Source: Minisyncoccota bacterium
GTDB lineage: Bacteria > Patescibacteriota > Minisyncoccia > Phycocordibacterales > UBA918
Reading direction: 5' to 3'
DNA length: 64,000 nucleotides
Assembly: GCA_937975855.1 (NCBI GenBank)
Contig: CALJTT010000004.1
Location: 5,583 to 69,582, forward strand
The notes under the pieces were generated by a model. The model ran no database searches. It was not told the origin of the DNA and was given only the letters and a program-made list of their open reading frames with translations. Every line of letters starts with the position of its first letter. The first letter of the stretch is position 1. Of the stretch, positions 1-54,612 are shown piece by piece. Both the position numbers and the translations under genes were made by a program.

Positions 1-2506
1 TGTTGGCCAAACCAGAAGTCGCGTCTATGGAGCCAAACTCACTGATCGCCAAGCTGGTCAAAGTGTGACTGCCAACGTTTGAACTTAGGATGAATTGCCC
101 GCCTAAATAAATTGAAGAGACATCGGTATCAACAGTTGCAATAAGTGCGCCAGTTGAACTTGCTGTTATATCTGCATTAATGGTGACTTGCGGATACACG
201 TCGTATACACCCAGCTCGACTCCATTGTCAGTCAACCTAAAACAATATGTAGTCCCTTCAACGGCAAGTGCGGTAGCTTGGATCGAATATTCTAGCTCCA
301 AAAACTGAGTGACCGTCATAGTAGTCGCCGCCACAGTGTCGCTAATATCTTTTGTGGCCGCATTAGGTGTGAGGAAAGAAACGTTCTCGTCGGTCACACC
401 ACCTATCGCCACAGCGATATTTGTAGTGTCTGTACCGTCAGTCAGATTTACTGAATCAAACATTTCAAACTCGTCACCTACAGTATCAATTGCCGACCAG
501 CCAGAGCTAAGTTCACAGGTGGCACCAGCGACAGCAAATTCCAATTGGTAAGCCATGGGATCAGATGTAGTAGAACCTTCCACCGAAACACCCAGACGTA
601 ACCGCTTAGGGGAAAGTATCTGCAAGGCATCTATAGACGTGTCTTCTGCGCCACCGGTTGCAGAAGTGGCTGCGGACTCTAAACCATCGTCGTTTCGCCA
701 ATGATAATGGGTCAAAGTCACGTCAGGACTGACAATCGTAGTTGAACCAGCCAAGGCGACAGGCGCGTCAGGAAAAGGATCAGTTCCTGTGATTCCAATA
801 TCGATCAATGGGTTGGCTATCTGTAGGTCGAATGTAGATCCGTCTGCAGCCATGTTAGTAGCATCAAACACAACGTACCCACAAAACGTTGTCGTTGGAT
901 TCAATACAACAGCGGCCCCAGAGAACGTACTTGTTCCGTTAGCCGAACTGAACCCGTCTGAATCCGTTGCGCCAAATTGTAATTCTCCGCCAGCGTACGT
1001 TTCAGAATCACAGTCATAAGGCGACGTTGTATCCAGATCGTAAAACACTTTTACGTTTTCAATGCCAGCATTAGCGTCCAAAGTACCAGTCTCGGTTAAT
1101 GTCAAAGACGACAATGTGTTTGGGACGAGAGATTCAATCACAAATGTACCACCTGCATAATTGTCGGAAGTGTTAGCTTTTACAACGGCTGCTTGCGTAC
1201 CTGTAGCGCTCACCTTAATGTCAGGCCCGATGTTGTCCAGAGTCTCGCCAAAACGATCGTCAGTAGCGGCCTCCCACCAGGTGACGTAAAGACGCTCGAA
1301 ATTACTTGGGTCAAGGGCGGGTTTGCGAATATCGCCCGGCGAAGCGTTAACAGGGCCAATCTCACTTCCCCATGATGTCATGCCATCCGTAGATTGTTTG
1401 TAGTAAATATTTGCCGTTGAAACATCGCCAGCCGTGTCCTGGATAGCATAAGCGGCGTAAACATGGCCGTTGTTTTGGTCAATTGCAACTGCTACATCCA
1501 ACAATCCTCGGCCAACTTGGTTGGTAATGGCGTCTGACATTGTTGTCCAGGCTGATCCATCGTAAACAGCACTTTGGACATCATCATTATCGTCAGTCAG
1601 AATGTCATTGTCAGCCGCATATATTAAATAAATGTAACCAGTAGACTGGTCAATGGTGGCAGACATGCCGCCGTCGTACTCTGCGCTCTCAGACACACTT
1701 GTGTCGACATTGCTCCAACTAGCAGACCAACTTACACCATTCCAAATTTTACTTCGAATGAGGTTTGCTGAAATGTCACGATTGATCGCCATTACATCAC
1801 CACCAGCAAGAGGCATCAAGATGGTGTGGTCGTTTCGTAAGTCGAACGGGCTGACGCCTACTTCGTTCCAATTCGCTACATTGTTGCAAGTTGCACTACA
1901 AGAAACAGCATATGAGTCGCTGTTGTCGTTTGCGGCGGCGTACAGCGTGCCATCGGTCGCTTTAGTAAACGCCAAAGTGTTTATTGAGGCAGAGAAAGTT
2001 GGAACCTGCAGCGAGTTACTGCTGATATTCGTCGGAGCTGCACCTGAGAGCAAAGTGTCTGTAGTTGTGTCGAGCCGGTTGTAGAACAAGTCGTCGTCGC
2101 TAGTGTCCATTGTAACGATATGAATATTCACACCAGCATCACCAGGCGTCCACTTGTCGTACCAGACACCGATTCGTATGCAGTCCGTCTGACTGTCCAC
2201 CAACACCGTAGTACCCCATGTGGCGCCGGCATCTGTGGATTTTCTGTATACACATTGCCCTGTGCTATCGCGATAAAACGAGTACCCTATCTGGTCAGTT
2301 ACAAAAACGGTTTGCGTACCGGTATTGTTGTTAGTCCGAGCGTTAGTGCTACTTGTAGTGTCTATAGTAACAACAGCGGCCTCGGCGCTGGTCGGCGAAA
2401 AAAGTGGATTCAATAATTGCGTCCCAAGTAAATCAAACACTAGCAAAAACACCAGCCAAGAACTGAGTCCATTTTGTAGAATAGTAAAACCTCGCAGTTG
2501 TTTCAT
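1..2506 (-). CDS. Secreted BNR/Asp-box-repeat (sialidase-like beta-propeller) protein, 3'-partial (stop lies beyond window start). Absent from supplied ORF track. The C-terminal part carries a W-R-N-D-D-G ... C-F-R-L-T-D-N-G domain also present in the giant protein.
   Basis: Manual minus-strand translation from ATG at 2506 (MKQLRGFTILQNGLSSWLVFLLV..., signal/TM) reads open to position 1. No competing ORF of 60 aa or more exists except short plus-strand ones. Perfect Asp-boxes S-T-D-A-G-A-T-W (~2215-2250) and S-T-D-G-M-T-S-W (~1370-1400). Motifs HYHWRNDDG and YCFRLTDNG parallel FRWRNDDG / LCFRVTDQG in the giant protein. Confidence 0.55.
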   Translation of the reverse strand, partial: MKQLRGFTILQNGLSSWLVFLLVFDLLGTQLLNPLFSPTSAEAAVVTIDTTSSTNARTNNNTGTQTVFVTDQIGYSFYRDSTGQCVYRKSTDAGATWGTTVLVDSQTDCIRIGVWYDKWTPGDAGVNIHIVTMDTSDDDLFYNRLDTTTDTLLSGAAPTNISSNSLQVPTFSASINTLAFTKATDGTLYAAANDNSDSYAVSCSATCNNVANWNEVGVSPFDLRNDHTILMPLAGGDVMAINRDISANLIRSKIWNGVSWSASWSNVDTSVSESAEYDGGMSATIDQSTGYIYLIYAADNDILTDDNDDVQSAVYDGSAWTTMSDAITNQVGRGLLDVAVAIDQNNGHVYAAYAIQDTAGDVSTANIYYKQSTDGMTSWGSEIGPVNASPGDIRKPALDPSNFERLYVTWWEAATDDRFGETLDNIGPDIKVSATGTQAAVVKANTSDNYAGGTFVIESLVPNTLSSLTLTETGTLDANAGIENVKVFYDLDTTSPYDCDSETYAGGELQFGATDSDGFSSANGTSTFSGAAVVLNPTTTFCGYVVFDATNMAADGSTFDLQIANPLIDIGITGTDPFPDAPVALAGSTTIVSPDVTLTHYHWRNDDGLESAATSATGGAEDTSIDALQILSPKRLRLGVSVEGSTTSDPMAYQLEFAVAGATCELSSGWSAIDTVGDEFEMFDSVNLTDGTDTTNIAVAIGGVTDENVSFLTPNAATKDISDTVAATTMTVTQFLELEYSIQATALAVEGTTYCFRLTDNGVELGVYDVYPQVTINADITASSTGALIATVDTDVSSIYLGGQFILSSNVGSHTLTSLAISEFGSIDATSGLAN

Positions 2507-2546: not shown

Positions 2547-4466
2547 TTATTGGCTCTGTGAACTGGTAGAAGTGGTGGTTGAAGAATCCAAAATCAACGT
2601 ATCATCATCGCTATACAGTTCTTCCACCACGGGGATATTTGGGGTACTTAGGTCAAGATCAAAATCTTCGCCTAGCGCACTGGTAGATGTTGTAGCAGCA
2701 GAAGTGGCGGAAGTGCTCAAGTCTAATGTTCCAACAGCCGGGTCTTCATTTTCAAAATTTGTATCAATGGTCGGGTCTGGGCCAGCAACCTCTTCAGTTT
2801 CATCCTGAACGACCTTAGGTGCAGAAGGTGCAACTAGTGCTCTTGTTTCCCCTGTGGACTCTGGCTCAGGCAATTTGTCAGGCAACTCCACCGGCAACTG
2901 ACCCAAAGGAATGATTTCACCCGTCACAAGGTCAAAACCTTTTGTAGCAGTGTCGCCGTTTCCGTATATGGCGTCGTACACAACAACCATTCGAGGGTTC
3001 GAGACAGCCACTCCGTCGGAGTCAGAAATTTCGTTATAAGTTTTGCTTACAGTGTCATAAGTCATCAAAGACTGAGAACCGTCACTAGCCCGAACGTTCC
3101 AAATTACCAAACTCCCTCGTACATGTGGAGCGATGTCGTGCTCTGGAGATTCAGTAAGCCTGCTTAGCGAGCCTGACTCGAGGAGCATAATTTCCCAGTT
3201 ATTGTCAATCCAGCGTTGCCAAACGGTAGTATTGCCAGCACGAGTTGGCTGCATGTTGTTTACGCTTGTTGTAGTCAAAACTTGCTCTTCACCACTATCC
3301 ACATCATAAGCAACAATTTGGTAACGATCGTCTATCAAACGATGCCATACAATCGTATGTGAAACTGCGTCGTAATAAGGTGAAGAATCATCGACCAAGT
3401 TATCGGTTATCTTTTGTTCAATATTATTTCTGCGTAAGAAAAGTTCAAGATCTCCATCCGAGTCTGGTGCAGCAAAAAGATCGTCTTTCAAGAAAGAACT
3501 GTCAGAAGAATTCTTTTTACAATAAAAGCTGCCGTCGTCCACGGTTGTACATTCTGTCTCGTTGAAACTAAATGGAGACGAACGCTCGATAAACTGCACT
3601 ACTGTCGGATCGACATTATCAGGTGTGGAACTTGCAGTCGATGTGGCTATCTCTTGAATTGTTGAAGTAGAAACTTCCACACTTTCAGATTCAGGCTCAG
3701 GCTCCTTCTTACTGCTGGAAAAATCTTGCTTCACTTCCGACACTGTAGTGGTCGAGAGAGTTGTTGTAGCTACATCATTATTATCATTGTCGCTTACAGC
3801 TACAGCTTCGGATGTCGTTGCATTACTCGAGGAAGATATTTGAGATTCTGGGGTGTGATCCAAAACTTCCGATACCAAAACTGGTTCGCTGGTGCTGGCC
3901 AAAGTGGTCGTGGCGCTGTCAAGAGAATCCACAGTGGCTTCAGAAGCTGACGATGTAGCAGTGCCTGAAACAGCGGGCTTATCAGGTGGCACCTCATCCA
4001 ATGAAACTGCTGTTACAACTGTATCGGAGACAGAGTCAGTTTCGGTCTGGAACTCTGATAATTCACCGTCCAAAGCAGATTCATCTGGAGCAGCTAGTTC
4101 TTCTACTGAAATAGCGGTTTCATCTGTCACTTCACTATCCTGCTCTTCTTCTATTTCTATTGTATCCAGCAAATCTAAAGTGATTTCATCTTCTGTATCA
4201 ACAATATCTATAACTTCTGCTGTAGCAATGGCGGGCAATTCATCTTCGTTTGCATGCACAAACAGAGGCTGCATCAGCAAAGAAAGCAGCAAGAAAACTG
4301 CACAGAGTGTATACACAACGTTGAAACGAGAATTAGAACTGGCAGGTATTGAAGATGCCATATCCGCGGAAAAGTTTTCTAATTTGGTGAGTCGTGTAGA
4401 AGTATTGTTATATAAGGTTATTTTGTTTCTTTTGAGTGCCATAAATTTGACGTGGCAAAATGCCAT
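2547..4466 (-). CDS. Secreted acidic Ser/Thr-rich protein with C-terminal beta-propeller-like (TolB/DPP-IV-like) region. Probable true start is at the internal Met (MASSIPASS..., ~4361), giving a signal peptide.
   Basis: 639-aa ORF. Hydrophobic segment VVYTLCAVFLLLSLLMQPLFVHA then a D/E/S/T-rich low-complexity half. The C-terminal half has repeated hydrophobic/W-containing strands. Confidence 0.5.
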   Translation of the reverse strand: MAFCHVKFMALKRNKITLYNNTSTRLTKLENFSADMASSIPASSNSRFNVVYTLCAVFLLLSLLMQPLFVHANEDELPAIATAEVIDIVDTEDEITLDLLDTIEIEEEQDSEVTDETAISVEELAAPDESALDGELSEFQTETDSVSDTVVTAVSLDEVPPDKPAVSGTATSSASEATVDSLDSATTTLASTSEPVLVSEVLDHTPESQISSSSNATTSEAVAVSDNDNNDVATTTLSTTTVSEVKQDFSSSKKEPEPESESVEVSTSTIQEIATSTASSTPDNVDPTVVQFIERSSPFSFNETECTTVDDGSFYCKKNSSDSSFLKDDLFAAPDSDGDLELFLRRNNIEQKITDNLVDDSSPYYDAVSHTIVWHRLIDDRYQIVAYDVDSGEEQVLTTTSVNNMQPTRAGNTTVWQRWIDNNWEIMLLESGSLSRLTESPEHDIAPHVRGSLVIWNVRASDGSQSLMTYDTVSKTYNEISDSDGVAVSNPRMVVVYDAIYGNGDTATKGFDLVTGEIIPLGQLPVELPDKLPEPESTGETRALVAPSAPKVVQDETEEVAGPDPTIDTNFENEDPAVGTLDLSTSATSAATTSTSALGEDFDLDLSTPNIPVVEELYSDDDTLILDSSTTTSTSSQSQ

Positions 4467-4548: not shown

Positions 4549-5307
4549 TTATTGGTTGAAAAAGTCTGCAAGGATAATCGAAAAATCTCGGAAGCTCATT
4601 CTTCCATCACCGTTGAAATCCATTGTTTGCGATCTGCTGCTCCAGGCACCCATAAATGCACTTATGTCCTTCAGAGTTATCTTCCCATCGCCATTGACGT
4701 CTGTTTTTGCAAAATCTTTAACAGCAAAATTAATACTAGAAAAATCAGTGTTTTCGTCAAAATTAAGTAAAGAAAGCCGCATTCTGTCATCATCCATGGA
4801 AAGCACCTCAGTACCCTCTCCATCTCCCGCAACAAAATTGACATCTTTAACCTCTATGGTGTATTGCCCTGGTTCCAAGGCTCTGAAATTCAAAGTTGCG
4901 ATCTGATGTTTACCCAAAAAACCTCTTTTAAAGGTTCCTCCACTAAGCTTTACCGATGTGGTGTCTATTTCTGGATCTGCAGTCCAGATAGTGAGTACTG
5001 ATTGACCACGGTCAACTCCAAACACATCGACTTTACTTTTGGTGAATTCTACAGTTATTTCTACTGCATTAACTGGTGTAGTAACATCAGCATAAACAAC
5101 CACGGGAAAAACTGAACCCACTTCGATGGTGTTGGTTGCTGTCTCAAAATATACAGATGACATGTTGGACGAACCGGTTAAGGCGAGCAAGCTAGCAGTT
5201 GCAAGGCCGGTTAGAATTGCTGGGAACATAAACTTCACAGTAGAACTCGCTCGTCGTCTGTACATCAAGTTTTGAAAATATCTTTTGGTTTTAGCCCAGA
5301 AAAACAT
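4549..5307 (-). CDS. Secreted protein with cohesin-like domain plus C-terminal dockerin (adaptor-type cohesin+dockerin protein)
   Basis: Signal/TM (FPAILTGLATASLLALTG). The central ~130 aa match the cohesin-like pattern shared with 5999..7768 and 35159..36697 (VNAVEITVEF...SVLTIWTADP). C-terminal duplicated Ca-binding dockerin repeats DVNGDGKITLKDISAF / DFNGDGRMSFRDFSIIL. Confidence 0.5.
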   Translation of the reverse strand: MFFWAKTKRYFQNLMYRRRASSTVKFMFPAILTGLATASLLALTGSSNMSSVYFETATNTIEVGSVFPVVVYADVTTPVNAVEITVEFTKSKVDVFGVDRGQSVLTIWTADPEIDTTSVKLSGGTFKRGFLGKHQIATLNFRALEPGQYTIEVKDVNFVAGDGEGTEVLSMDDDRMRLSLLNFDENTDFSSINFAVKDFAKTDVNGDGKITLKDISAFMGAWSSRSQTMDFNGDGRMSFRDFSIILADFFNQ

Positions 5308-18510: not shown

Positions 18511-21500
18511 TTAATCGCCGATTGCGGTAAATGAGTTGATGCCCGTATGGGGCCTGCTGGCTGAGCCGAACGGTACTTCAATACCCCAATATAAATTGTC
18601 AGTTACGCCAGGAGTTGTCGTTGTTGGCTTACTGAGATCAAGTTCAAGATTGGCTGGAGTTACAGTAAGTGCGCTACATCCCACACATGCTGCGTAGTTA
18701 AATGTACTAGTGGCGTACCTCTGCTGGGCTGCTGCGATCACAGAACTGGCGCCATCAGACATGTCAGTTCCTGCTATTTGTACGTCGATGGACTCGTTTC
18801 CGATGTTATGTAGGGTTACTGCCGGGTTGAAAGCCCCAGTGTTATTGGTCACCTCGACAACACCGTAGGCAATGCTGTTTTGTATATCTAGCGCTCGCAA
18901 CGTCAGCAACTCAACGCCGGTTGATGTCACAAAGTCTACCGCGCCAGTGGTGTCCTCGACCTCCATAAACGCAAACCATTCTTCTGCGCCATCTAGGTCA
19001 GTTGGATCGGCGTGGTAGACAATCGGCGCACTACACTGCAACGAACAAGCGTTAGTTGTACAGTTGGTGTAAGTACAGCTGCTGGTGGCCACATAACAAT
19101 TATTGTCATCTGGCGAACAAGCGGCTCCCACAGAAGTTTTGTAGAAAGTTGTTGTGGCGCTCACGATGTCCGCAATCCCGTTTAGATCAGTAACAGTTGT
19201 AGAGGCGATGATTTCTGTTGTAGTCCCGGCAGATAGTGAAATATCCAGTCCGTCGTTAAGAGAGAGTGAGCCGAGAACCGGATCGAAGCGCAATGTCAGT
19301 TCTGCAACCTCTAGATAAGTATCAAGTTCTGTACCTTGGTCGGTAACTCTGAAGCATAAATTCTGGTCGTCAACATTAATAGTTGGTGTGATTACATACT
19401 CGATTTCGGTGTACTCGAACATAGCGATATCCAAATCCCCAGTCTCATTTGACGGATCTTCCCTAAGCTCGCCAGCGGTGAATTGACCAGACACGTCGTT
19501 TAGCAGGTCGACAGTGGTTTCTCCATTAGTAACTTCGGTTGAAGTTTGCATACAGACTGGCGACAAGCCACAACTACTTTGAACAGGAACGTCCAAATAA
19601 CCAGCGGTCGACACAGCTTCACAACTTGGCGCTGACCCCTTTGGCACATATTCAAGTGCGAAGCGCTGAGCGGTGATCGCTCCACCGCTGTTTTCGACGG
19701 CCAATCGTAGCCTGGCAGTGTCGCCAGCCTCAAAGGTAGCGGCGGTATTTTGTTCAGCAGCCCATGTTGCTCCCCCGTCTGACTGCTCTGCACCAAAGCG
19801 AACGTTTGGCTTGCTAGTCATTGTCGGTCGTGAACTAAAGCTGTCCCAACCTCCGTTATGGAACCAGAATGTAAATCCATACCCACCAGTTGTGTAAGTA
19901 GAGTCCGAGGCTGAAAATGAAGTCACTTGTGTGCCGGCGTCGTTATACAATCGAAGGTCGAATGTGTCGTTCGTCCGCCAGTCAACTTCCACCTCGTACC
20001 AACCTGTTGTGTACGTAACAGTAGAAGAGCCAATGATGGTTCCTGACGCATCGTTCTCGACCGCGTCACGCACCAATGTGATACGGTCTGTTCCAAATTG
20101 CTCGATACACACAGCATAATTTTCGTTGGTGGATCCAGGAGACTGCACACCAAACAAGACACAGGTTTCGTCACTAGTACCTGCGCTGGTGTCGACATAC
20201 TGCTGGTAGCGGATTGTCTCACCTTGACTGACACTCTGGTCAAAGCGGTACATACCACCCAAAGTTGCCCGACTACTCTCATTGCCTGCGTTCCCAAGTC
20301 CGTACGTACCATCAAATGCGAAAGAAGCATCTGTAGCAAACAAAGCAGTTTGGCCAGTGTATTCTGCAATATCGTTGTCTTCAAAATCGTCAGCCGCGAC
20401 AAAAACTTGCTCGAGGTCGCTAGAGGACGTGGCAGACGGATTGTTGTAGTACATGTACAAAACGGTGTCAGACTCCGCTGGCATTGTTGGAACTTGAACC
20501 CATACTTCTACAATCGTGCTATCGGTTGAAGATCCGATCCAGTATGGAACCGTCGTGGTTCCGGTGTTGTCGGTGAAGCGCAAGTCGTCAAAGTCAGAGC
20601 GCATATCAGAATCGTAAGGAACTGTTACCTGAACAGCTACATCGGTATAGGTTGCCGCGTCAGCGTTGGTTAGGCGAACCGGCTGACGAGCGGCCCAATC
20701 TGTGTTCATCCATTCAATATCTGGTACCTGGGCGTTACCATCGTCGTTACGCCAACGGAAATCCGTCTGCTGAGTAATCAGACAAGAACTGTCGCCCCAC
20801 CGAACGGATCCACAATCTGTGGCGCCGTCGATATCGTACACTTCACCATCGAGATTTCCGACATGACTGGCAAATGTCCAAACATTACCCGTAACACCCG
20901 ACAGAGTAATGTTGTTACCCGTAATAGACGCCGACGTGGCGAACCGCGAGCCCGTGATAATCAATGACGCGTTGGCGTTAACTGTAGACGAAGACAAAGT
21001 CATCAGCGACCCGCCATCGACAGCCAGCTCGAAGTCACCGTAAGACAGCGAAGAAATAGTTGGCACTCCAGACAACTGCCAGCCGGCGGCATCAGTATTA
21101 CGCACCGAGTAATATAAGGCATTGAGTGCACCTGAGCTTACTGCAAATGAGTAAGTTCCAGATCCTTGATTGGTAATGTTTGTTTCGTTGCCTGCCTCAC
21201 CGACAATCTGTAACGATCCGCCGTCGACAGTTGCACTACTGTTGTCAGCCAACCGCACAGTCACGACACGCTCGCTGCCCGATAGGTCAGTACCATCAAA
21301 GTCAGTGGCGTAGCTCCAATATTCAGTTGTTGTAGAAATATGATAATCACCGTAAATATTCAAGTCTCCGTCAGCGCCAGCGTGGTCTTGGGAATACCAC
21401 GATGATGAACTTGGCACACTGACAGTTGTCGCGCTGCTGTTCCAGCTGGAGATGTCCGTATTTTCTCCCAAAACGAGTGTGTCATAAGCTTCGGTCGGGA

Positions 21501-24500
21501 TGGTCTTGTCGTTTGTTTCGTACTCGTTTGAACCGTCAAGTACTAATGTTGTGCTTGTCCAGGTTGTAGCTGCTCCACCGACGTCGTTGCTGAACACGCC
21601 ACCAACATACAGCACGCTGCCTGGAACCACTGTAAACGAACCAGCGTTACTCAAACTAAAGTTGTTAGTTGTGGTCGCGCTATCAGTCAAAGTCCAGCCA
21701 CCAGTACCAGCAATTACAACATTATAAAGGTCGTTAGCGCCAGGATCGATAAACTCGCCAGCGTCATTGGAATTAAATAATAGTGTGCCGGACGCGTGAC
21801 TGTACGTCCCGCCCGACACATCAAACGATCCGCCGATTGCCAACGTGCCGGTACCAACCGTAAATGTGCCACCGGTCAAAGTTAGGGAATCTAACAAACT
21901 AGCTGACATGTCAATCAGAGTGTAGTCACCGGCTGCAGCGGCGATCGTTAGACTGTTTAGGTCATTCCCAGAAAGCGTTACAAGGTTACCTCCGGTCGTA
22001 CTTGTTAACACAACCTCGCCGCCGGCGTGTGCAATTGTGCCATCGACCACAAAATCACCAGCCACAGTCAGCGTACCTGTAGGCAGCGTAACTGTTCCAT
22101 CGACAACTATAAACGAAGCTGTTGCTGTGGCTGTCGTGTCAGACATCGTCCAGGTCCCAGGACCCGAGAACAACACTTCGTTAGCGTCAGACCCACCAAA
22201 AGTTACGGTTTTACCGGCGACGGCCGAGTCAAAAAGTAAAGTTCCGCTGTTAGCGTCAAAGGCTCCGCCACTGTTTACAAACGACCCGCTGACAGTTGTC
22301 GTAGAGCTTGGCAGAGTCACAGTACCGTCAGTGATCAAGAAATTGTTATTGATGTCACCGTCAAGCATTGTCCAGTCACCACTGCCAGCGAATGCCAAAT
22401 TGTAGAAACCACTGTCGTTAGTGTCTACAGTCCGTCCCGCAGATGACGACGTAAAGGTTGTGCTAGAAGTTTGTGCATCAAAAGTTGCATCGGTTTCAGA
22501 AATAAGACTACCACCCAGGCTGTATACCTCGGCTGCCCCGCCGTCAAAGGTAGAGCCAGAGAGCAGTTTAAGAGTACCGTCGTAGTCCAGAGCACTGCCG
22601 CCGGTTACGGTCATGTCTCCTTGTGGTGCAAATGTTTTGTCTGTCCAGACTATCAATCCAAAGCCACTATCAACCGTCAACGTGTCTGGAGCAGAGTCAA
22701 CCGCTGTAAACGGAATAGCGGCGTCGTCTGAAGAGTCCCACACTGACATATCAGCAATCGTTAACGGGTCAGTTGCTTCGTGGCGCACAATTACGCGGTT
22801 TTGGTAAATATCGAAGTTGCTTATGTTCGAAACCGGGTCGGCTGTGACTGTAGCCCCTTCTTCGCCGGTAGCTGGCAGGAGATACGCAATGATTGAGTCC
22901 CCGGGTGAATATGTCACACCTGTCACGCTGTAAACACCACTACCGTCACAGGTAGAGCTATAAGTCGTCAAGCCAGCGACGACAACATTCACCGCTGTAG
23001 TTGCGCCATCACACACAGACGCGCCGGCGGTGGTTACACCTTCATCAGAGTACACCGTACCGGAAATAGTAATGTTTGCTGCCGAGTCGTCCCACGAAAC
23101 GTAACCTGGGTCGCCGTCAGGGTCTACGTCAAATCCTTCTCCAGCGATATCGCCGTAGTGGTTTGTGAAGCGCCATGAACTGACACTCGTGCCGGTCGCT
23201 GTTGCGCCAAAGCCACTAGCTGCGCCGTCGAGATACAGCTGATTAAGCGTAAACGCTTTGGCCGGATTGGCAGTAATAGCTGTTCCACCCACTGTCACCG
23301 CGCTACCTCCAGTTTGTGACACTCCGATAGAACCATGCGACAAAGAGCCGATCGACGCCGAGCCAGTGATAACTAAACCATCAATGTTCAAATCGCTTAA
23401 TGTGTAGTAGTCAAAAGTACTAGACGCCGTCCCGCCGATCGTCAATGCGTACGTGCCAGAACCTTGATTTTCTACAGTACTTGATGCACTTGCAGATCCT
23501 AGTACAGACAGCTGTCCGCCGGTGATGGTCACGCTACCGTTGTCAGCTATGTAAACCGAGGCTATGCGCTCACTGCCAGCTAGGCTGGTTCCGTCAAAGT
23601 CAGTAGCGTAGCTCCAGTGATCGTTAGCTGCTGTCTGGTTATACGATCCCCAGATGTACAGGTCGCCATCTACATTAGAGTGATCCTGAGAATACAACGA
23701 GGCTGTTGTGTCGACAGTATAACTAAGAGCGTCACTATTCCACATCCTGACCTGAGTTGTGCCGTCCACCTCAAGTGTCGCGTACGAGTCAGCGGTGGTA
23801 GATGCGTTAATGGCGTAATTGTTGCCTCCGTATAGTCGCAATGTGGAACCTGTCCACGTTGTGGGTGCTCCACCAATGTCGTTAAAGAACGTTCCGCCAA
23901 CAGACAGCGTTTGCCCGGAATTCAAAGTAAATGTATTTGCGTCGGTTAACAACCAGCTGTCTGTGGCTGTGGCATGTTCAGTTACTGTTACGTCGCCCGT
24001 AGCGTCGATAACAACATTTGCGAAATCACTGCTACCAGCAGCAACAGAGATCGCGCCCGACCCATCAAAAGTCAAAGTTCCTGTGCCGGCGGTTAGTACG
24101 CCATTATTGTCATAACTGCCAGCAATAGTGGTCGTGGCTAAGTCACTAAGTACCCAAACGCCATTTGATTCTATTGTCACGTCGCCATTTATGTCGAACT
24201 GCGGATCGTTGGTAGTTTGATCAAAAGTCGTGGCGGCCACACCTGCAATCACCAAATCGTTGTCGACAATAATACCTGGTGTACCCGTAGTGTATGTTGC
24301 CGGCGCGCCACTGGCTGCCAACGTCAGATTGTAATATTCGGTAGCGAGAACTTCCGAGCCGGGCCCGCTGTAGACAACTGTGCTGGTATCCGCCAAGAAC
24401 GTCCCCTCCTCCACAAAGACTACACCCGTGCCAGCCAAATCCCAGATAGTCGACCCGGCGTCAAGGAAGTGAGCCATCTCGATAGTCAAGACCCCACCGA

Positions 24501-27500
24501 TTGTGGTGGTGCTTGTAAACAGCGGTGTTGTTGTGCCGACTGACAAGGTGTCACCCAACTGCAAATTATGGAAAGTCCACGAACCAGCCCCACCAAGATT
24601 ATTGGCTACGGCCATTGTAGTTGTGCCGCCATTTAGCAACACCGTTCCTGCACCAGCAAAGTCGCCACTTTCAACATAGATATCACCATTGCCGGACAAT
24701 ACACCGTCAGTCATAAGTACATCACCGAGCACGCGAATATCAGCCGTCAAAGCCCAACCGCCGCCTGCACCATCAAACGTAAGATTGTTGAAAGTGACCT
24801 CATCGCCAGCCGTGATAAGTTTGCCAGTGGTCGAAGCGTTCATTAATACTGTGGTGCTGGCAGCATTGAATGTACTGCTCGCACCAAGAGTAAACCGCCC
24901 ACCGATAGCCAAAGTTGATGTAGCAAAAGCATTGAATGTAGCATTGTCGGCCAAAGTTAGTGAACCATCGTAACTGGTGCCAGCACCTTCGCCGGCCAGG
25001 GTCACTTCTCCGCCTGGAGTAAAGGTAGTGGAAGCCCAAACATACAACTCGTTTCCAGACAGCACAGTCAAGGTGTCAGAGTCTGTGTTCGTGGCAGCGA
25101 CAAATTGCAAATCGACATCTTCACTATTGTCGCGCACGGCCAGTTGATTAATTGTCAATGCTGCCAAATCTTCGTGACGGACAATCACACGGTTCGCATA
25201 AATATCGGCATCAAGAATGTTGGCCGTCGGTGTGCGAGTGATGATGCTTCCCTGTTCGCCGCCTGCCGCGTTGTTTAGATAGATGGTCAAGGCGGGGTCT
25301 CCAACAATGGTAATACCGCTGATACTGTAAGCCCCGGTGCCGGCATCACACGATCCTGTGTAGGGTGCTGGATTTCCTTCCACATAGACATTTACAACCG
25401 CGGTAGCCCCGTCACAGGTAGGTCCTCCCAAAGGTGTAACGCCCGCGTCAGCATAAACAGTTCCTGCCATGGTGATCACCAACAAACTGTCGTCGAAGCG
25501 TATAGACCCCGGGTCACCTGTGTCGCTGTCGTTTGATTCACCATACAAGTTTCCGGCGCCACTTCTGAACCACCAATATGACAAAGGTGTTCCGTCCGTC
25601 TGGGACACGTTGGTAGCAAATATCGCCGAAGTTGTGGAGAAGGAAATTTCGTATAGTTGATTAGCCGGATTTGCATCAATAGTAGTCGAAGAAAGCGTAA
25701 GCGCCGTCCCAGCCACGGCGTCGACTTGGTAAGAACCATTTTCGAATACCCCAACTGAGACCGCGTCCAGTAGTGACAGACCCGTGCTACCCAGGTTACT
25801 AAACGTATGATATTGCGCGTCGAATGTACCGCCAGAAACAGTGACGTTGTAAGTTCCACTTCCTTGATTGGCAACAGTTGTCGATGCCGCAAAGTCGCCG
25901 ATGATTTCGAAAGTCACAGAGTCGAAATCTGCGCTGGCGCCATCGGCAAATCGCACGTTCGCTTGCCTTTGTGCCGAAAGTGCTGCGAGATCAGTTCCGT
26001 CAAAGTCAGTAGCGTAGCTCCAGTACTCATTGCCGCCGGCTATGTTGTAATTTCCAAATATATATAAGTCACCATCGATCGCACCGTGGTCTTGTGAATA
26101 AAGCGAGCCAGTAGCGTCAACGTCATAGACAACAGCATCTGAGTTCCACATTTTGATGTCAGTGTCGTTTGCCACCCTTATCGTGCCATAGGTATCTCCA
26201 GGGTCTGTTTCGTTGTTTATGCTATAGGCACCAGCCTCGAGAGACAACGTGCTGCCTGTCCAGGTCGTAGAAGCTCCGCCCACATAGTTGTGAAATTCCC
26301 CTGCTACCGAAAGTGATTCCCCTGACTGCATCGTGAAGTCGCTGCTGCTAGCGAGGGTAAATGTGCCAGTTGTAGTTGCCGACGACACAACAGTCCAGCC
26401 GCCAGTCTCACTGGCGATCAGCACGTCATGGAGTGGATCTGCGCCAAAGTCGATAGTCTCTCCATTGTCGAGCGAGTCAAAGACTACCAAGCTTGTACCT
26501 GCACTCACGGTTGCCTGGTTGTCGTACGACCCACCGATTGTGAATGTGTCAGGTAAAGTCAGCGCACCGCCGTAAACAAACAGATCGCCAGTCGCCAGAG
26601 CGTTGGTGTCAGAGAAACTCCAGCTGCCAATTCCGTCAAACACCACGTTGTTGAAACTAGAGCCACTGGTGGTCAAGACTTCTGCGACACTACTATAGAA
26701 ACGTGTAGTTCCGGTTCCGCCATCAAAACTGCCCGAGTCCGCCACCAATGACCCACCAATAGCAAACACGCCGCTTGGGAACAAGACACTGCCCTGGAGA
26801 ATATTTACATCATTGGTGGAAGTAGCGTTTGTATCGGTCATAGTCCAGGTACCAGCACCTTCGAAAGTCATGTTGTGAGCCACATTTGTAAACTCGGCAC
26901 CGTCGAATGTGATGTTTTCTGGGCCGTCGGACGTAAAGTACAGTACGCCGTTATTATGCAAAAACGCACCGCCGGTTGAGTCAAACGAACCGTCAATTGT
27001 AGTGGTAGCAGTCGGTAGGGTCACCGTTCCAGTTGCAATGGTGAGATTATTGTTAACGAACACTTCCGTTTCAGCAAAGGACCATGAGCCCCCAACCCCA
27101 GTGAAAGACAGATCATAAAACGCGTCGGCTGCCGAAATGATCACATGACTGGTCGTCGTTGCAACAAAGAACACCTCACCTTGCCTAGCTACAAAAGCGT
27201 TATTGTTAGTCCAGTCGCCGTACACGTACAGATCGTAGTTGTTTGATGACGCGTCTAGAGTGTCGTCAATACCAATGGTTATCGACTGCGCAGCAACATC
27301 ACTGCCCAAGGAGATTATTTTTGAACTACCGTCAATCACAACATGTCCGATATTTTGTAGCGTTACATTTTTGTCTGACCAAATAGATGCAGAGTTTCCA
27401 TCCAGAGTGGTCGTGCCAATACCTGTCCAAAAACCAGTTGCGCCAGTAGTTATGTCTCCCACAACATTAATGCTGGTTGTAGCCCGAGCAAGGGTTCCAG

Positions 27501-30500
27501 TTTCAACGGTCAGATTACCATTAACGTCAAGCAAGGGTGACACTGTCCAAATCGCACTACTGGTAGTCGAACCAAAGGTCAGGCTGCCAAACGTAGTCGT
27601 TGCGCCAGTGTTGTCAATCACCTCATTTCCGACCAAGGCGCTAAATAAAACTGTCGAGTCGCTTAGGCTTGTTGTTGCACTATTTTCCCATGAACCAGAA
27701 ACTTCCATCGAATGCGTTTCCAGCGTGAAGGAGCCGTTATTTTCAAAGTCATGAGTGATAATGTCACCCTCTGGCTGATAAAGCGCGCCAGACTTTATAT
27801 AAAGTTCAGCATCAGTACAACCGGCGTCAGCACAAGTATTTAATACACTACCAGAGAGGGACAAGAACACGTCTTCATCGTTAGTAAAGGTGTAGCTGCC
27901 AATATCAAGGTTGGTAAGCGGTGTCGAAGTTGCGTCGTTAGAGCCAATACTGACATGCCTTTCATATAACTCGAATCCGTCTATGTCGCCAATTCCGTCA
28001 TATAAAGTAACACCAACAGCCTCAGCTGCGTCTGCAGCCCCAGAGACAAATACTGTAACGATGTCACCGGGGAAAACTGTGACATTGTCGATTGACCAGA
28101 CTCCCGCGGAAATAGTCCCGACCTTACCAGCCTGCAGCACACCATTAACAGCCACGACGACGTTACCGCTAGTCACGTTGGTGGATTGATCGTAACCTTG
28201 GGCAGTTCCTGAAATCGTCAATCCTGCCGCCCAGGTTACAGCCCAGTCGTACATTTCTGGACAGTTACCCGAACCATCACAAGCCAGCTCTGCAAATGGA
28301 CGAACTACGTTGTATGTAAATCGGTCTAGACCCGACAAGTCAATTGGGCTAGTGGTGGTTCCAAGCTCGTTAACCGGCAGGTCGCTTGGTGGGATCATCT
28401 GCCAGCTATTGGTAGCGGACAAATATTGTACAAAGTAGCGTATTTCACTTGTGCCGGGCTGGAAATCGTTCCAGGCAAATTCTTGCCAGTACGGACCGGT
28501 TCCGTCTTCAAAATAAACTGGCGGACTGACAATCGTGCTACCTGTGCTACCTGGCTGACGAGCACCTATATCGTACGGACGACCGTACGGGCTAGTGTCT
28601 ACAGACACATTTGTAACCAGATCAACAGTCGTGCTCCAGCTAGATCCATTCCAAGTAGAGAAGCGCAACGTGTCGTTAGCGTTGTCCAAAAATGCACCAA
28701 GAATGAGACCTTCGCCCATACGCTCTAGCTGCATAGTGGCGGTATTAATGATTGTGTTCACTTGAGTCTCGGCACTCCAGGCTGTATTGTTGTACGTTTG
28801 GTAGTTAGTGGCCGTAGCATCGCTGTACGTCAACATGATGTGATTGTCGCGGCCGGAAGTTGTCTCGAAAGAACAGTCAAAGCTGGGCTCAGTCTTTACA
28901 CTGGCTGTTTCTAGATTATCGTCGAGCGTCCAGGCTGCTCCATCCCACCTTACGACCGCAATATCACTAGTATCATCAACCAGACAAAGGGCCATGTCGT
29001 CAGAACCTTCGTCTCGTACGAGCGACCCCCACTCAAAGTCGTTACCAATAGTTTGATTCGCCGCAGCGCTCCAAGCGGTGCCGTTCCAACTACTCCAGGT
29101 GAAGCGGGCTGGATTACCATCAGAAGCAACTATCACAGCCTGGCCACCACTCTCTTCGTATTCCAAAGCCATACCGGCATACGCCGATTCAGTAATTCGA
29201 CCAAGCGTAGTTGGGTTACCCCAAGCAGACCCATCCCACACCTGAGCTTCAAATGGGTTCCCGTCTGACCCACGCACCATAATCACCATTTCGTCAGATG
29301 TTGGATTGGCGGCCAGTTCTATCCAGGTACAGTTGGTTGTCTCGGCTACATTTATAGTCCCACCACTGGTCCAGGTCGTGCCGTCCCACACATAATAAGA
29401 TGGATCAGCGTCACCATCACAATATACGGCAATTGCATCACCCGATAATGTTTCGTACTCGACATCAAACCCACGGGCACTGATGTCGCTAACACTGGTT
29501 GTGAGTTCTTGTTGGCTGCGCCATTCTCCAATTGTGTAAGTTTGAGCATTGATGTCAGCGTCAGTTCCAAGTGTTACAGCAATATACTCTTCCCGTGTAG
29601 GAGCAGCTTTCACTACAGACCATTTTAGTGGTGCTGAGATGTCTAACAATGTCCCCTCCTCAGACAAAACTGTACCTGTCCACAACCGATAACGCGGTTC
29701 GGTTTCAATTCCTTCACCATAGACAATCATCGCCTCGGTAGCGGTGGTCGCCACGGTCAAATACCCAGCTTCAGTCGAAATAGTACCGGAAAGAATATCA
29801 GTATCGAATTGATCTTTTGTGGTTTGGAACCAGGTCGAGACGTCAGTTCCGGGAATAACGGTCAGGCTGCGCTCAACCGTCCAAAATGAATAGACATTGT
29901 CACCAGTTGGATCTTTGGCTCGGACGCGCCACCAATATGTGGTCGTACCAGTCAAAGCATCAGCTGGTTGGATCTCAAAGCGAATGCGCTCGTTAGCGTT
30001 GAAAGGGCTGGTGTCAGCGCCAGTTACGATATTGGTAAACCCACCGTCGACATCTGATGTGCGGGTAGTTGATGCTGCAAAATCACGGTCTGTTGACCAG
30101 GAAATTTGGTAAGTCAAATCTTCGCTTTGCGGATCGTCTGCCACAAACTCAAAGGTTGGAGTTGTCGTTCCTACCTGCTCGTTGGCAAACAAACTGAAAA
30201 TAGTTGGTGTCTCTACTTTGTAACCCCAATTAATAGTCCAGTCTTGCAAAGTTGGAGAACCGCCACTGTTAGTGAAAGTGGCGACCACTCGCAAGGTGTC
30301 GTACTCGCCGGTATCAACATCCAGTAAGGGCACGGGCGAGGTGCCGAACCCGCTACTATTTCCAGGCAGTGCAGAATCAGGAACTAGGGACCAGGCGCTG
30401 CCGTCGTAATATTCGATTTGATAAGAAATGCTGCCCGTGGTTTCAACGTCGGTAAAAACAAAGTCCTCCCAAACTGTTCCGTTAACGCCGTCAAAGAACA

Positions 30501-33500
30501 CAATTGATTCACTAGTTAAAGTTCCAGTTGTTGATCCAGTTATCAATTGAACAGAATCGCCAGACACCTCTACACCATCAAGAGCACCAGCTTGGAACTG
30601 CTCGTTTTCTGTCTGGAACCAAGCAGTGGCCAGTAATGTCGCATCTACAGTAAAGTTATAGATCTCTGACCAGTTACCCCAACTATTTGAACCTTCTGGG
30701 TCGCGAGCTTGAATGCGCCAGTAGTACGTAGTGCCGTCTGTAAAAGAGACTACTGGGGTGAACTTCATCTGCTCGCCATGCCTGAATGGAGCTTTGTCAG
30801 CCACAAGCACCTGGTTCTCGAACTGTGAAGAGTTTGAAATGGTATTTTTGGCAACCAGCGGAGAACCAAACGCAGGATCATCGTCGATCTCAATAGAGTA
30901 ATGTACGTTGTCACCCTCGTCATCAAACGCAGTGAAGTAGAACTCTTGGGTAGTGCTGGCGGTCTTTTCACTTATAAATGGCTTATCCAGAGTTAAAGTG
31001 TCTGGCGAAAAATTCGTTAACAGTTGCGGGTAGTGATTATAGGAAAAGAAAACTGTTCCGTCAGCTTGAACCAGCCGAAAACAATACTGCGTACCGGCCG
31101 AGGCACCATTGTGCTCTAATACAAAGTCCCATTCCCCTACGTCGCTAACTGCTATTTCGTTTGGCGTTGACGAAGCAAGCGCGTCCTCTTCATAGGTCGC
31201 CACCACCGTAGAAGAAGACAATAACGTCGATGGTAAAGTTGCGCCGTCAGCAATACCGCCAACGTTGTATCCACGCCAAATCGCTGCAGAGGCCACATCT
31301 CCCACATCAGTCCAGGTTGCAGCAAAACTACAAACGCTAGCTTCAGCAAATTGTAATTTAAAGTCAGACCCAATAGTAGAAGTGGCGTTTGTGACCTCGG
31401 TGTTTAAACGCAAGCGAACCACATCGCCATCTGCCACAGGTGTGCTGGTGGCAGTGATCGGCTCGCGCTCTATTAGATCTACTCCCCCGCCATCATTTGG
31501 CCAAGGTTCAGTCGGAGTCAAACTGGCTGCATTTGCATACCATCGTGAAGATAACTGCGTGTAAACCGGATCAACTCCCTGACGTTTTCCGAATCGCACC
31601 GTTACATACGGCGGCAGATGGTCGTCAGTTGAGAAGTCGGTAGCGTCAACCTGGTGAGTATGTGCACCAGCCGAACCAGAACTGCCCGAACGAGCATTGA
31701 TCGTCGCACTTGGGCCCGACGATGTTATTCCCAGCGCGTCAGCATGTGTATGACTTTGAACGTCACCAGTTGCGCCATATGTAGCAGCCGCTTTGATAAA
31801 CCGATTTGAAAACGCGTCGCCGTCATCAGAAACAGACACCCAGCCTCCATCGACATCTTCATCCCACATGGCAATCAGTCCGTTTGGTGGTGCGTCGTCA
31901 GCACTTAGTTCAGCCAGTAGAATCTCGATGAACGGAGGCTGATTATCAACACTGTCACTGTTCGAGTTAACGGTGTGATTGTGGGTGTCAGTTGCCCCTG
32001 ACTGTTGTGACCCACCACCTCGAATTCTGGTTCCTGCGCCGGCTGCGTTAGCTGTAGTCCCTGTAATACCATGCGTGTGAGTGTTGGATCCAGCAGTGGT
32101 ACCTGGAGTATCTTCGCCGTAGACGTACTTGCCGTCTTGTGCCGCGTAGCGATTCCAGCCAGCAGGCAGGCTAGAGGAAGCCGTGTCGAACATAGCAATT
32201 GCGCCGGCTGGAATAGTTGTTGGTTCACCAGCAGCCACATCGTAGCGAATAACCCGCAGCTGTCTATATTCGGGAAGGTTTGATTCTGAACTGATGGTTG
32301 GTGTGTACGTATGAGTATGACTGACAGGCGCAACCGCTCCAGAACCACTTTCTGTAGACGCTGCTGCAGAACCCAAAACCGAACCAACGGCAGTGTGCGT
32401 GTGAGTAGCAGCGCCACCAGTGTTGTTGTAAGTGGAGCTGGCGACAATAAAGCGCTGGTAAAAAGGATCAGCCGGGGCACAAGATACACACACCCAGTCG
32501 GTCGGGATACTGGCGCCAGAGTCCCAGAAAAGCAACATCTTACCAACTGCATCTGATGCGATTTGCCATTGCCGATGCTCTACAAACGAGATGTTAGAAG
32601 AACCTGTGGTACTGGCAGTGCGAACAACATCACCCTGCAACTCTGCTGCTCCCAGCACAAACAGGAATGGAGATATGTCAGGGGCGTCAAACTGATAAGA
32701 GACCTCAATCGATTCCCCTGCAGACACAGACACGTCCCAGGTCAAAACCTGATCGTCATTGTCGATAGTAATTGAAGCGTCCGTATCGAATATTTCAAAA
32801 TCTTTGGGGACTCGTTCGGTTAATGTTCCATCAAAACCCGCGCTACTGTCGACAGTTAGAATCATCGGGTACGCAGCTGGTGGATAAATACGAGTAGGCC
32901 CTTCTCGCGAAATAGACACATCTTGCGTTTCAACCACCCTAAAGGTGTCGCTGGTGAAACTAAGAACCTCACCATCGTCGCTTAGTCGTTCTAGATAAAG
33001 TTTATATTCGCCGGGTATACCAGCAGTTGAACTAGCCAGGAAATCTGGCACGTCGATTACGTTATTGCCATCACACAAGCCAGATTCGACTACCGGCAGA
33101 CGCTCGATCACACCCGCAGGATCAGTTACATACAAGTCGATGTTCGCTGAACAGATGGTGTGTCCAGTAGGGGTAATTGCACCAACAGAGAAATTGACAG
33201 ACTCGCCGGTAGCGTATTCTGTCTTGTTAGAGTTGATTGTCAAAATTCCCCACTGAAAACTGAAAGTGTCGATTGTCTGCTTGCCTCCTTCGTTCAGGGT
33301 CAGTTCGATTTCGTATTCACCAGGACGTAAATTTACGAGTTGCGCATCAGGAATTTTTATATCGAACTTACCATCTGGTGTCACCGACACCTCTGGTTGT
33401 AGTGGCATCGGTCCATAAGACTTGTGACTAACCAGAACATTCTCCACTTCTACCATGTCTGACCTGAGTATTGATCTGAACCCTCGCACTAGCGCGTTGC

Positions 33501-45264: not shown

Positions 45265-46638
<1,374 letters not shown>

Positions 46639-53982: not shown

Positions 53983-54612
53983 CTATTCGACCTTTAACTT
54001 AGCAAAAACAACGCGATTGTGCGAATAGCGACTAGTGTCAGAATCGTACCATCCAGAGCAAGTTACGAGGCGTAAACCTGCGTGATCGATGTCGCCATAT
54101 ACTAAACTAGTCGGGAAAGAAGATTGCTCGTATTTCTCGCTGCCAGTTACTTTAAACGTGGCTTCAGAGCCGTCCGACAGGCCTATAACGATGTCGTCAC
54201 CCTTATCTAACTGTCCTAGAGCGTAAAACACTGCGGGTCCGTCCAGGGAGTCCACATGGCCCAAAATCACGGCCGGCCCTAGTTCCCCTGGTACAGGACT
54301 GTGCTTATACCAACCAACTGTCTCATATTCAGCAGGAACCTCCACCTCTTGATTAGATTGCAACCCAAGCGGATTCGTAAAATCAGCCGTCAGACCCAAG
54401 TCTGGGATGCGCAAGGTTGTGGGCAGCAACTCGTCACCAGGCTGAGATACATTATGTTCAGTTTGAACCTGCACCCGATCAGTTGGAGTATGTGACAAAA
54501 CAGCAGATGGAGCGTTTTCGCCAATAGCTATCACCAATGCCACACAAGCCAAAAAAACGCCCAAGGGGGCGTATTTTTTGTAAACGTCAATTAGATTAAG
54601 ACGATTAGACAT
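53983..54612 (-). CDS. Sortase-family transpeptidase (membrane-anchored)
   Basis: N-terminal TM (LGVFLACVALVIAI). Catalytic-triad-like context AVILGHVDS (His), LRLVTCSGW (TLxTC Cys), SRYSHNRVVF (Arg). Overlaps the upstream substrate gene by 8 nt. Confidence 0.6.
   Translation of the reverse strand: MSNRLNLIDVYKKYAPLGVFLACVALVIAIGENAPSAVLSHTPTDRVQVQTEHNVSQPGDELLPTTLRIPDLGLTADFTNPLGLQSNQEVEVPAEYETVGWYKHSPVPGELGPAVILGHVDSLDGPAVFYALGQLDKGDDIVIGLSDGSEATFKVTGSEKYEQSSFPTSLVYGDIDHAGLRLVTCSGWYDSDTSRYSHNRVVFAKLKVE

Follow-up and report, generated by a model that had tools for sequence, protein, structure and literature searches.

A 64,000-nucleotide stretch of the genome of a Minisyncoccota bacterium (contig CALJTT010000004.1, positions 5,583 to 69,582 of the forward strand; G+C content 47%), hereafter the window, encodes two large proteins which share an all-β domain of about 180 aa. 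One of them is protein A, whose gene (gene A) is cut off by the left edge of the window and is an object of an ordinary kind, a gene for a large secreted surface protein. The other is the giant protein G (5516 aa; 18511..35061, minus strand). Profile searches place the shared domain, called the sandwich below, in a widespread family which has no name in the libraries searched. The sandwich would consist of two separable parts, a highly conserved first strand, M, with the consensus '(L)xQxHYRWRNDDG(G/S)E', and a body, C, with the consensus '(G)ATWxAxEDT...RLR...LEYA..C..W...ExEY...YCFR...Y.YP'. The two parts are contiguous in protein A and in the first copy of G, and a guest module lies between them in the second copy of G. 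The explanation that we favor, and consider probable, is that the sandwich serves as a stalk when it is contiguous and as a host scaffold around a guest when it is split.

The shared sandwich and its family

The minus strand from position 2506 to position 1 was translated into 835 codons with zero in-frame stops, just as the original prediction had claimed. Gene A starts with the ATG at 2506, and a ribosome-binding-site-like AAGGA..GGAG is located 5′ of it. The gene is missing from the list of open reading frames (ORFs) of the window because its frame runs off the window, and frames that run past the edge are left out of that list. The leftward extension that had been proposed as a check was made on Logan contig L001, which belongs to an independent assembly and was reached by exact-sequence look-up of the adjoining 639-aa protein (2547..4466). 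The same gene is called on L001, the 835 codons are identical, and the frame extends to at least 1055 codons, with no stop by codon 1055. The closest database relative of protein A is P0001 from a Candidatus Kaiserbacteria metagenome-assembled genome (MAG), which has 45% identity and a length of 1445 aa and is itself partial; the full-length gene A is probably longer than 1400 codons. By this relationship, the window belongs to an ultrasmall bacterium of the Patescibacteria/CPR type, similar to Kaiserbacteria. Gene A and the contiguous sandwich copies are listed here:

1..2506, minus strand: gene A, the 5′ 835 codons of at least 1055 (open frame, ATG and ribosome-binding-site-like motif, Logan contig L001)
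170..718, minus strand: contiguous WRNDDG...CFR β-sandwich of protein A, aa 597-779 (AlphaFold2 model; hidden Markov model (HMM) E=1e-63)
674..718, minus strand: strand element M of this copy (TLTHYHWRNDDGLES), β-strand 1 (residues 2-10 of the model)
31003..31554, minus strand: contiguous sandwich copy 1 of G, 'RWYxNxx' subtype (SSRWYANAAS...RLRL...YCFRL; BLASTP E=1e-4, HMM E=3e-55)

In protein A, WRNDDG is at aa 603 and CFRLT at aa 755, 152 residues apart. On alignment, G carries the sandwich twice: BLASTP matched A608-779 with G5090-5260 (E=1e-7) and A635-777 with G1216-1350 (E=1e-4). Comparison with shuffled sequences had been named as a way to refute the similarity; the Smith-Waterman scores had z values of 15.2 and 9.8 against 1000 shuffles, none of which reached the observed score. 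The HMM built from 503 database copies matched the sandwich of A at E=1e-63 and those of G at 3e-55 and 4e-45, and it found no further sandwich copy in the 64-kb window beyond these three. A jackhmmer search of the window ORFs with the domain of A alone gave only the self-match, and a narrow HMM from the close homologues of A missed the giant protein; a profile made from the three window copies was required. It could be argued that the likeness is a chance or compositional match between two Thr/Ser/Ala-rich surface proteins, as the pairwise identity is just 26% and both proteins are compositionally biased. This reading is already refuted by the shuffles, by the profile E-values of 1e-63 to 4e-45 and by the database clusters described below (1200 at E≤1e-10), and we give it practically no weight. 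The domain is almost certainly real and common to A and G, and the claim of an unnamed domain in both proteins stands, as a module of about 180 aa for which the libraries hold no model.

The database search suggested with the original prediction was made with the three-window-copy profile against 1.84 billion representative proteins. Counted as clusters at 50% identity, the matches numbered 2177 at the E≤1e-3 cut-off; 1200 of these also satisfied E≤1e-10 and 278 satisfied E≤1e-30. A single protein had as many as 21 copies. When one-genome-per-species contigs were scanned with a degenerate DNA pattern encoding YRWRNDDG, at least 120 sites were found, nearly all of them true and in conserved context, with a few chance matches. 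Within the Patescibacteria the motif was found in Parcubacteria, Saccharibacteria and others, and elsewhere in Bacteroidota, Gammaproteobacteria, Acidobacteriota, Planctomycetota, Kiritimatiellia, Cloacimonadota and one Micrarchaeota MAG. The domain had been described as shared among the surface proteins of this organism; it is indeed common to both proteins, but it is not organism-specific and occurs in many phyla. In Bacteroidota, the sandwich is the N-terminal domain of cargo proteins of the type IX secretion system (T9SS), and these members carry T9SS sorting tails.

Two other occurrences of the motif or the domain were observed. P0030 (2536 aa, Chloroflexota MAG, MFC1925596.1) has a prepilin-type methylation motif (N_methyl / ComGE-like) followed by 13 sandwich copies, and it looks like a giant modular pilin. 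In three Woeseiaceae loci (L028, L045 and L048), HYRWRNDDGA is found inside a conserved, apparently unrelated protein (...VVGGSTDDVRHYRWRNDDGAEILLTDVPGIGGTE...) with no sandwich body, and it looks like a chance or convergent peptide.

The sandwich of A was modeled by AlphaFold2 from a 41-sequence alignment as an all-β domain with 8 strands (predicted local distance difference test score (pLDDT) 95.1, predicted template modeling score (pTM) 0.90). The WRNDDG segment is strand 1 (residues 2-10 of the model), within a block of pLDDT ~97, and the Q, Y-R-W and D positions of strand M are among the most informative columns of the profile. The Cys residues at profile columns 69 (after LEYA) and 161 (YCFR) covary: both residues are present in 86 of 128 non-redundant copies and both are absent from 37, with 5 discordant copies. 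Such covariation in the alignment is characteristic of a disulfide bond and of a domain located outside the cell. The signal peptide and the T9SS sorting tails on the Bacteroidota members likewise point to an extracellular character. Judged by the model and the Cys pair, the sandwich would be an Ig-like, disulfide-braced domain of about 180 aa.

Neither Pfam-A nor NCBIfam gave a match over the sandwich in A, in G, in the 4- to 13-copy proteins or in the Bacteroidota members, and the best hit of a PDB sequence profile search with the sandwich had E=0.67. When the model was compared with the PDB by Foldseek, the template modeling scores (TM-scores) were 0.34-0.41 (best TMq 0.38-0.41), the best match had E ~3e-3 and none reached E≤1e-3; the matches in BFVD were weaker than those in the PDB. 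The source annotations of family members read 'hypothetical protein' or name another domain, e.g., the T9SS sorting domain, and the WRNDDG motif was not found in the literature searched. The sandwich is similar to Ig-like/E-set stalk domains (Big, PKD, fn3, CLIPPER, macroglobulin MG) in its size, its all-β sandwich and its tandem arrays in very large secreted proteins, and it also occurs beside PKD, Big and fn3 domains. The best Foldseek matches were of this generic kind as well (ECAM MG domain, GH66 accessory domain, CLIPPER, cohesin and RhoGDI). However, it differs from these domains in having no sequence-family match and TM-scores of just 0.34-0.41, and in possessing a loop region of about 50 residues (88-138), a conserved RLR / ExEY / YCFR signature and a detachable strand 1.

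The split copy of the giant protein and its guest

In G, RWRNDDG is at aa 4770 and CFRVT at aa 5236, and the spacing from WRNDDG to CFRVTD is 466 residues, whereas it is 152 residues in protein A. The C-terminal copy is read as three segments:

20734..20775, minus strand: isolated strand M (TQQTDFRWRNDDGN), aa 4763-4776, invariant in 12 giant-protein homologues
19807..20733, minus strand: 309-aa guest insert, with DUF2341 first and after it a module that resembles concanavalin-A-like lectins or carbohydrate-binding modules (CBMs) (Pfam; Foldseek)
19276..19806, minus strand: strand-less body C (NVRFGAEQSDGGATW...RLRL...LCFRVTD), aa 5086-5262 (BLASTP E=1e-7, HMM E=4e-45)

DUF2341 (PF10102) was matched at 20368..20595 with 65.7 bits against a threshold of 23.4 (E=5e-18). 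There was no Pfam Laminin_G match in the insert at E≤0.1. A Foldseek search with a medium-confidence AlphaFold2 model of the insert (pLDDT 70) retrieved CBM66 (E=1e-5, TMt 0.56-0.64) and also CBM40 and galectins, suggesting a concanavalin-A-like lectin fold for the module after DUF2341. The HMM match to the C-terminal copy of G starts at profile position 13, directly past strand M. In 12 of 12 giant-protein homologues, an invariant YRWRNDDG is followed by about 316 residues and then by a body from profile position 13-20. At the level of sequence, two host segments thus appear to flank an unrelated guest as a nested (discontinuous) domain. The original prediction had aligned A and G as colinear; this is right for a discontinuous domain, on the reading that guests sit in the loop after strand 1, but the alignment skips 309 residues of DUF2341 and lectin-like insert. 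L022 (JANLIJ010000161.1, Candidatus Kaiserbacteria, 38398 bp) likewise encodes a homologue of the giant protein in which M, DUF2341 and C follow one another.

One candidate reading, that DUF2341 is itself a diverged sandwich copy, was rejected: the hhalign probability between the DUF2341 module and the sandwich was 94.9% with M and 3.5% once M was removed. A published study reports giant DUF2341-rich proteins in Patescibacteria and associates them with adhesion and with type IV pili-like systems (PMC11809585). The insert of G is like these DUF2341 and LamG/ConA-like giant proteins in its DUF2341 match and its predicted concanavalin-A-like fold, whereas that study describes no flanking WRNDDG strand or CFR body, and in G DUF2341 is the guest.

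A census of M and C in 177 fetched proteins, the window and 153 loci counted 445 contiguous copies, 192 strand-less bodies and 153 isolated strands. Of the 87 isolated strands with a further sandwich element after them, 78 were followed next by a strand-less C, 9 by a 'complete' copy and none by another M; most of the 9 were bodies whose HMM match started at position 7-10. Since just 30% of all bodies are strand-less, this pairing is far from random. Where no element followed an isolated M, the strand stood at the very end of the ORF in 43 cases; 23 others had at least 15 residues after it and were truncated ORFs, missed divergent copies or, in a few cases, chance matches. The gap between M and C ranged from 171 to 682 aa, with a median of 324 aa, and the bodies after guests began to match at profile position 13-23, which is exactly the end of M. 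The guests fall into at least 18 unrelated families (BLASTP 1e-6), among them DUF2341/lectin, several propeller- or Kelch-like repeats and others. On the simplest reading, the loop that follows strand 1 takes up the guest, at a point between DDG(G/S)E and ATW, and it is likely that the sandwich is a host domain for nested guests.

Several points weigh against this reading. The isolated strands were found by a strict regular expression, and the census counts are not independent events because the set of proteins contains some redundancy and the giant-protein family predominates in it, with 53 of the 84 guests. A few proteins have M and DUF2341 with no detectable body, and in L109 there is none within 616 residues. 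In a 510-residue AlphaFold2 model of the split region, made from 13 sequences, M is a 10-residue strand with a pLDDT of just 53-61, and a short local strand, VRFG (model residues 331-334), lies directly before the body and could replace strand 1. The structural neighbors of the sandwich are generic and point to no ligand or binding function.

The local strand and L109 would also fit a different arrangement, in which the WRNDDG strand at aa 4770 of G belongs to DUF2341 as a generic N-terminal cap strand that is reused by several module types, and the body is complete via VRFGAEQSDGG. The same arrangement would suit the hhalign result, which at 94.9% pairs M and the R-x-R-V strand of DUF2341 with the first 53 sandwich columns, and the Bacteroidota, in which M directly begins mature proteins. 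However, a strand owned by the guest leaves the constant presence of a downstream body unexplained: in 78 of 87 cases a strand-less body follows isolated M, across at least 18 unrelated guest families, the bodies after guests begin to match exactly where M ends, and DUF2341 without M is unlike the sandwich. We consider this arrangement unlikely.

A second alternative gives WRNDDG a role that is not mainly structural: it would be conserved for an enzyme or receptor, as a signal for recognition or processing (cleavage, modification, sorting or a calcium site). This would account for WRNDDG being far more conserved than the rest of the domain and for its place at extreme C-termini, where a near-invariant HYRWRNDDGGE ends many proteins (see below). 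The strict motif is kept in just 26% of contiguous copies, and the acidic N-D-D-G turn could bind a cation. In the confident model, however, the element is an integral nine-residue β-strand (pLDDT ~97). In addition, no transmembrane or hydrophobic segment follows it, unlike in known C-terminal sorting signals, no conserved candidate processing enzyme was found beside it in the operons examined, and the literature searched does not contain the motif. A signal of this kind is, in our judgment, very improbable.

We therefore return to the sandwich as a domain of two separable parts. The contiguous form, in A and in copy 1 of G, would most likely be a rigid stalk or spacer module. In the split copy of G, M may fold back onto C, close the loop and so display the guest binding module; both the docking of the distant M onto C and a role of the sandwich in adhesion or display are what we infer from the arrangement of the segments.

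Nested-domain ('Russian doll') adhesins are a known kind, e.g., the pneumococcal pilus tip adhesin RrgA, in which a binding domain is inserted into an Ig-like domain and splits it. The two cases would be alike in that a functional guest breaks up the sequence of a β-sandwich host in an adhesin of the cell surface or the pilus, here in the order M - guest - C. They differ in that the present host is of a different fold family and has no isopeptide-bond signature, guests always enter it in the loop that follows strand 1, it has at least 18 guest families, and its strand also stands alone at protein C-termini.

Strand M at protein C-termini and type IV pilus operons

In several genomes the motif runs directly into the stop codon, and a metagenome scan for WRNDDGGE followed by a stop gave 33 more loci. 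Proteins of three kinds end in this way. The first are 160-200 aa long, resemble type IV pilins and have a GFTLIELL-type N-terminus; the second are large and have what appear to be fn3-like arrays; in the third, a complete sandwich is followed by an extra strand at the end. In the operon of L056, with roles as read from the sequences, the order is pilin with M at its end, a second such pilin, a 513-aa protein, a third such pilin, a further pilin, a PilM-like protein and the major pilin. The pilin-like proteins, e.g., P0183, have the C-terminal tail LTQIHYRWRNDDGGE. The 513-aa protein, P0184, is made up of unit X, an uncharacterised module of about 160 aa which precedes each sandwich of protein A, and a body that lacks exactly strand M (...TTLQVPVVPP/ATWKASEDT...). 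The operon is conserved as follows:

L056 2665-7852, minus strand: conserved Patescibacteria type IV pilus operon in which one to three genes for M-ended minor-pilin-like proteins flank that of a membrane-anchored strand-less protein; also in L155, L157-L161, L116, L128, L133 and L138

M-ended pilin-like genes lie beside a gene for a strand-less-body protein also in L128, L133, L138 and L152, and in L116, L134, L142 and L144 the gene after the M-ended pilin shares the N-terminus of the 513-aa protein. In L130, L132, L146 and L150, a large M-ended protein is immediately followed by a protein with an unpaired body. The possibility that an M-ended gene and its downstream gene are one read-through gene was rejected, as the downstream proteins, called acceptors here, each begin at an ATG of their own and possess a membrane anchor as well as a conserved GW(L/I)FSGWPQIWQ motif.

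As a reciprocal test, the operons were also approached starting with the acceptors. The homologues of the 513-aa protein mostly have a strand-less body at the C-terminus and lack M. Six independent contigs were reached via acceptors, and the Pfam hits of their called genes show a type IV pilus operon on each (6 of 6), with the order PilB (T2SSE) - PilC (T2SSF) - pilin - pilin - acceptor - pilin - PilX_N-like - PilM_2 - major pilin, and a response-regulator gene lay upstream in 3 of them. In all six, one to three of the flanking pilin-like genes end in ...QxHYRWRND(D/N)Gxx and a stop. These neighborhoods are strong evidence from which we infer cooperation of the strand with a strand-less body on another protein; that the sandwich works in trans we regard as possible rather than probable.

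A more comprehensive explanation, which we put forward tentatively, covers action in cis, action in trans and the mounting of adhesins on the pilus tip. M would be a detachable 'plug' by which adhesins are built from parts. In cis it would close the sandwich around many guest modules. In trans, minor pilins of type IV pili in Patescibacteria, ending in ...HYRWRNDDGGE, would donate their strand to a membrane-anchored protein which occupies the gene position of PilY1 and has an incomplete C-terminal sandwich. Such strand donation would mount the adhesin on the pilus tip, as a reversed-polarity counterpart of PilY1-PilK, and additional docking sites could be provided by the strand-less bodies of giant surface proteins.

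A precedent comes from the type IV pilus tip, where a minor pilin of the PilK family has its sheet completed by the C-terminal peptide of PilC/PilY1 (PMC12918778, bioRxiv 2026). In both systems, operons encode minor-pilin-like proteins and a non-pilin at the gene position typical of PilY1, and one partner ends in a short conserved β-strand while the sheet of the other is one strand short, in the present case as judged from the gene sequences. The polarity is reversed, however, since here the strand is found on the pilins and it is the non-pilin whose sandwich is incomplete; the proteins also belong to different families, and there are two or three strand-bearing pilins per acceptor. This last number weighs against a simple one-to-one model in trans. 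It also speaks against the trans model that no strand-less sandwich was detected in the conserved gene downstream of the fn3-type M-ended proteins. As the window contains no type IV pilus or pilin-like gene and no other copy of the strand, the trans mechanism would be a property of the family rather than of this locus.

Two further features of these loci were observed. In acceptors, the motif GW(L/I)FSGWPQIWQNPP is located right after the membrane anchor, whatever lies between the motif and the C-terminal strand-less sandwich. The fn3-type M-ended proteins, which measure from at least 570 to 2282 aa in the stretches covered, end in ...FYQV(R/K)xxxxxQxHYRWRNDDGGE and a stop, and downstream of each is a conserved large gene whose product starts ...GFELxL...EFxFKKQR..W...FVDEYK. 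The loci are:

L130 5552-8968, L132 3-2549, L150 1-1797, L128 495-1607, L138 1001-2221, and proteins P0186, P0219 and P0228: acceptors with GW(L/I)FSGWPQIWQNPP
L122, L124, L137, L140, L145, L149, L154, L061, L087, L019 and L121: fn3-type M-ended proteins

Protein A, its neighborhood and the meaning of the family

Protein A has the order signal (aa 1-43), BNR-like region, unit X (433-596), sandwich (597-779), unit X (783-946) and a second sandwich from about aa 949. It would be a Sec-exported surface protein in which a signal and a BNR-like propeller are followed by alternating X and sandwich units. Besides the sandwich, the window contains these parts of it:

2378..2506, minus strand: signal/anchor, aa 1-43, hydrophobic LSSWLVFLLVFDLLG then SAEA/AVV (read from sequence; homologues alike)
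1217..2374, minus strand: BNR/sialidase-like β-propeller region, aa 45-430, a weak assignment (sub-threshold Pfam BNR_2; homologues pass)
719..1210, minus strand: unit X copy 1, aa 433-596 (local jackhmmer; no Pfam match)
2..160, minus strand: unit X copy 2, its first 53 residues, aa 783-835, continuing off the window (jackhmmer, profile positions 1-52)

The homologues of protein A have equivalent hydrophobic N-termini with A-x-A just before a conserved VTID, consistent with a Sec-type signal. Protein A as a type IV pilin (RG-FTILQ) was considered and rejected, as it has Gln and not Glu at +5, and its homologues have ordinary A-x-A signal peptides without the motif. The original prediction had called the protein a BNR protein with Asp-box repeats. 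Four homologues do pass Pfam BNR_2 (PF13088), i.e., P0006 (32.9 bits), P0010 (32.2), P0019 (45.4) and P0022 (33.7), but protein A itself scored 15.7 bits (E=0.01), below the gathering threshold of 31.4 bits. The consensus sought was S-x-D-x-G-x-T-W, one per blade; in the 386 residues of the propeller region it was found once in strict form (STDAGATW, aa 90) and once in degenerate form (STDGMTSW, aa 372), and there were no further boxes, so that one canonical box remains of the repeats. A PDB sequence search with this region found no relative. The likeness to BNR/sialidase propellers is thus that of the homologues and of the one canonical box. In homologues, the N-terminal module of A is joined to other C-terminal modules, Peptidase_C25 and LamG, to which precomputed Pfam labels add peptidoglycan-binding PF01471 and M23 (PF01551).

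Unit X was found by local jackhmmer in 85 copies in 59 related sequences, two of them in A and two in P0001, and also in pilus-operon proteins of L056 and L133. There was no copy in the giant protein and no Pfam hit. L001 completes the second unit X and continues into the second sandwich, which begins HWRDDNDSE. The X-sandwich periodicity is 351 aa in both protein A (L001) and P0001.

Nearly all predicted genes of the window are on the minus strand, and they include genes for Big/fn3 proteins, an ABC/FtsX pair, a Y-family polymerase and a CAP-domain protein. No LPXTG signal was found in the available sequence of protein A, which is incomplete, or in the giant protein, which ends ...SFTAIGD. 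The cohesin and dockerin modules listed below suggest that this small-genome bacterium may have a cohesin-dockerin surface assembly.

4549-5307, 5999-7768, 10284-11423, 35159-36697 and 37283-39238, minus strand: cohesin or dockerin type I modules with Big_13/Big_6
46695-52727, minus strand: 2010-aa protein with a glucose/sorbosone dehydrogenase (GSDH) propeller, PKD, CBM_4_9 and Big_7
45265-46638, plus strand: weak GH26 match, among the few predicted plus-strand genes, adjoining the 2010-aa protein
53983-54612, minus strand: sortase gene, adjoining a 667-aa protein with a lamin-tail-domain match

Patescibacteria, or Candidate Phyla Radiation (CPR) bacteria, live attached to host cells, and host recognition is suspected to depend above all on their giant surface proteins and type IV pili, but most of these proteins consist of unannotated sequence. 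By analogy, the sandwich may be likened to three known kinds of system, Ig-like stalk domains, nested-domain adhesins and strand complementation at the pilus tip. What appears unusual in the family, on its sequences, is the combination of a separable first strand, nested guests and the recurrence of the strand as the C-terminal tail of minor pilins beside strand-less acceptors. The analysis defines a module of more than 2000 protein clusters as a probable host for inserted lectin-like and propeller modules, and the M - guest - C pattern gives a rule by which the scaffold of giant proteins may be told apart from their candidate binding parts. Should the strand act between proteins as well, this would offer a testable answer to how adhesins are mounted on the pili of Patescibacteria, and, if true, the principle of strand complementation at the tip would extend to a new family with its polarity reversed.

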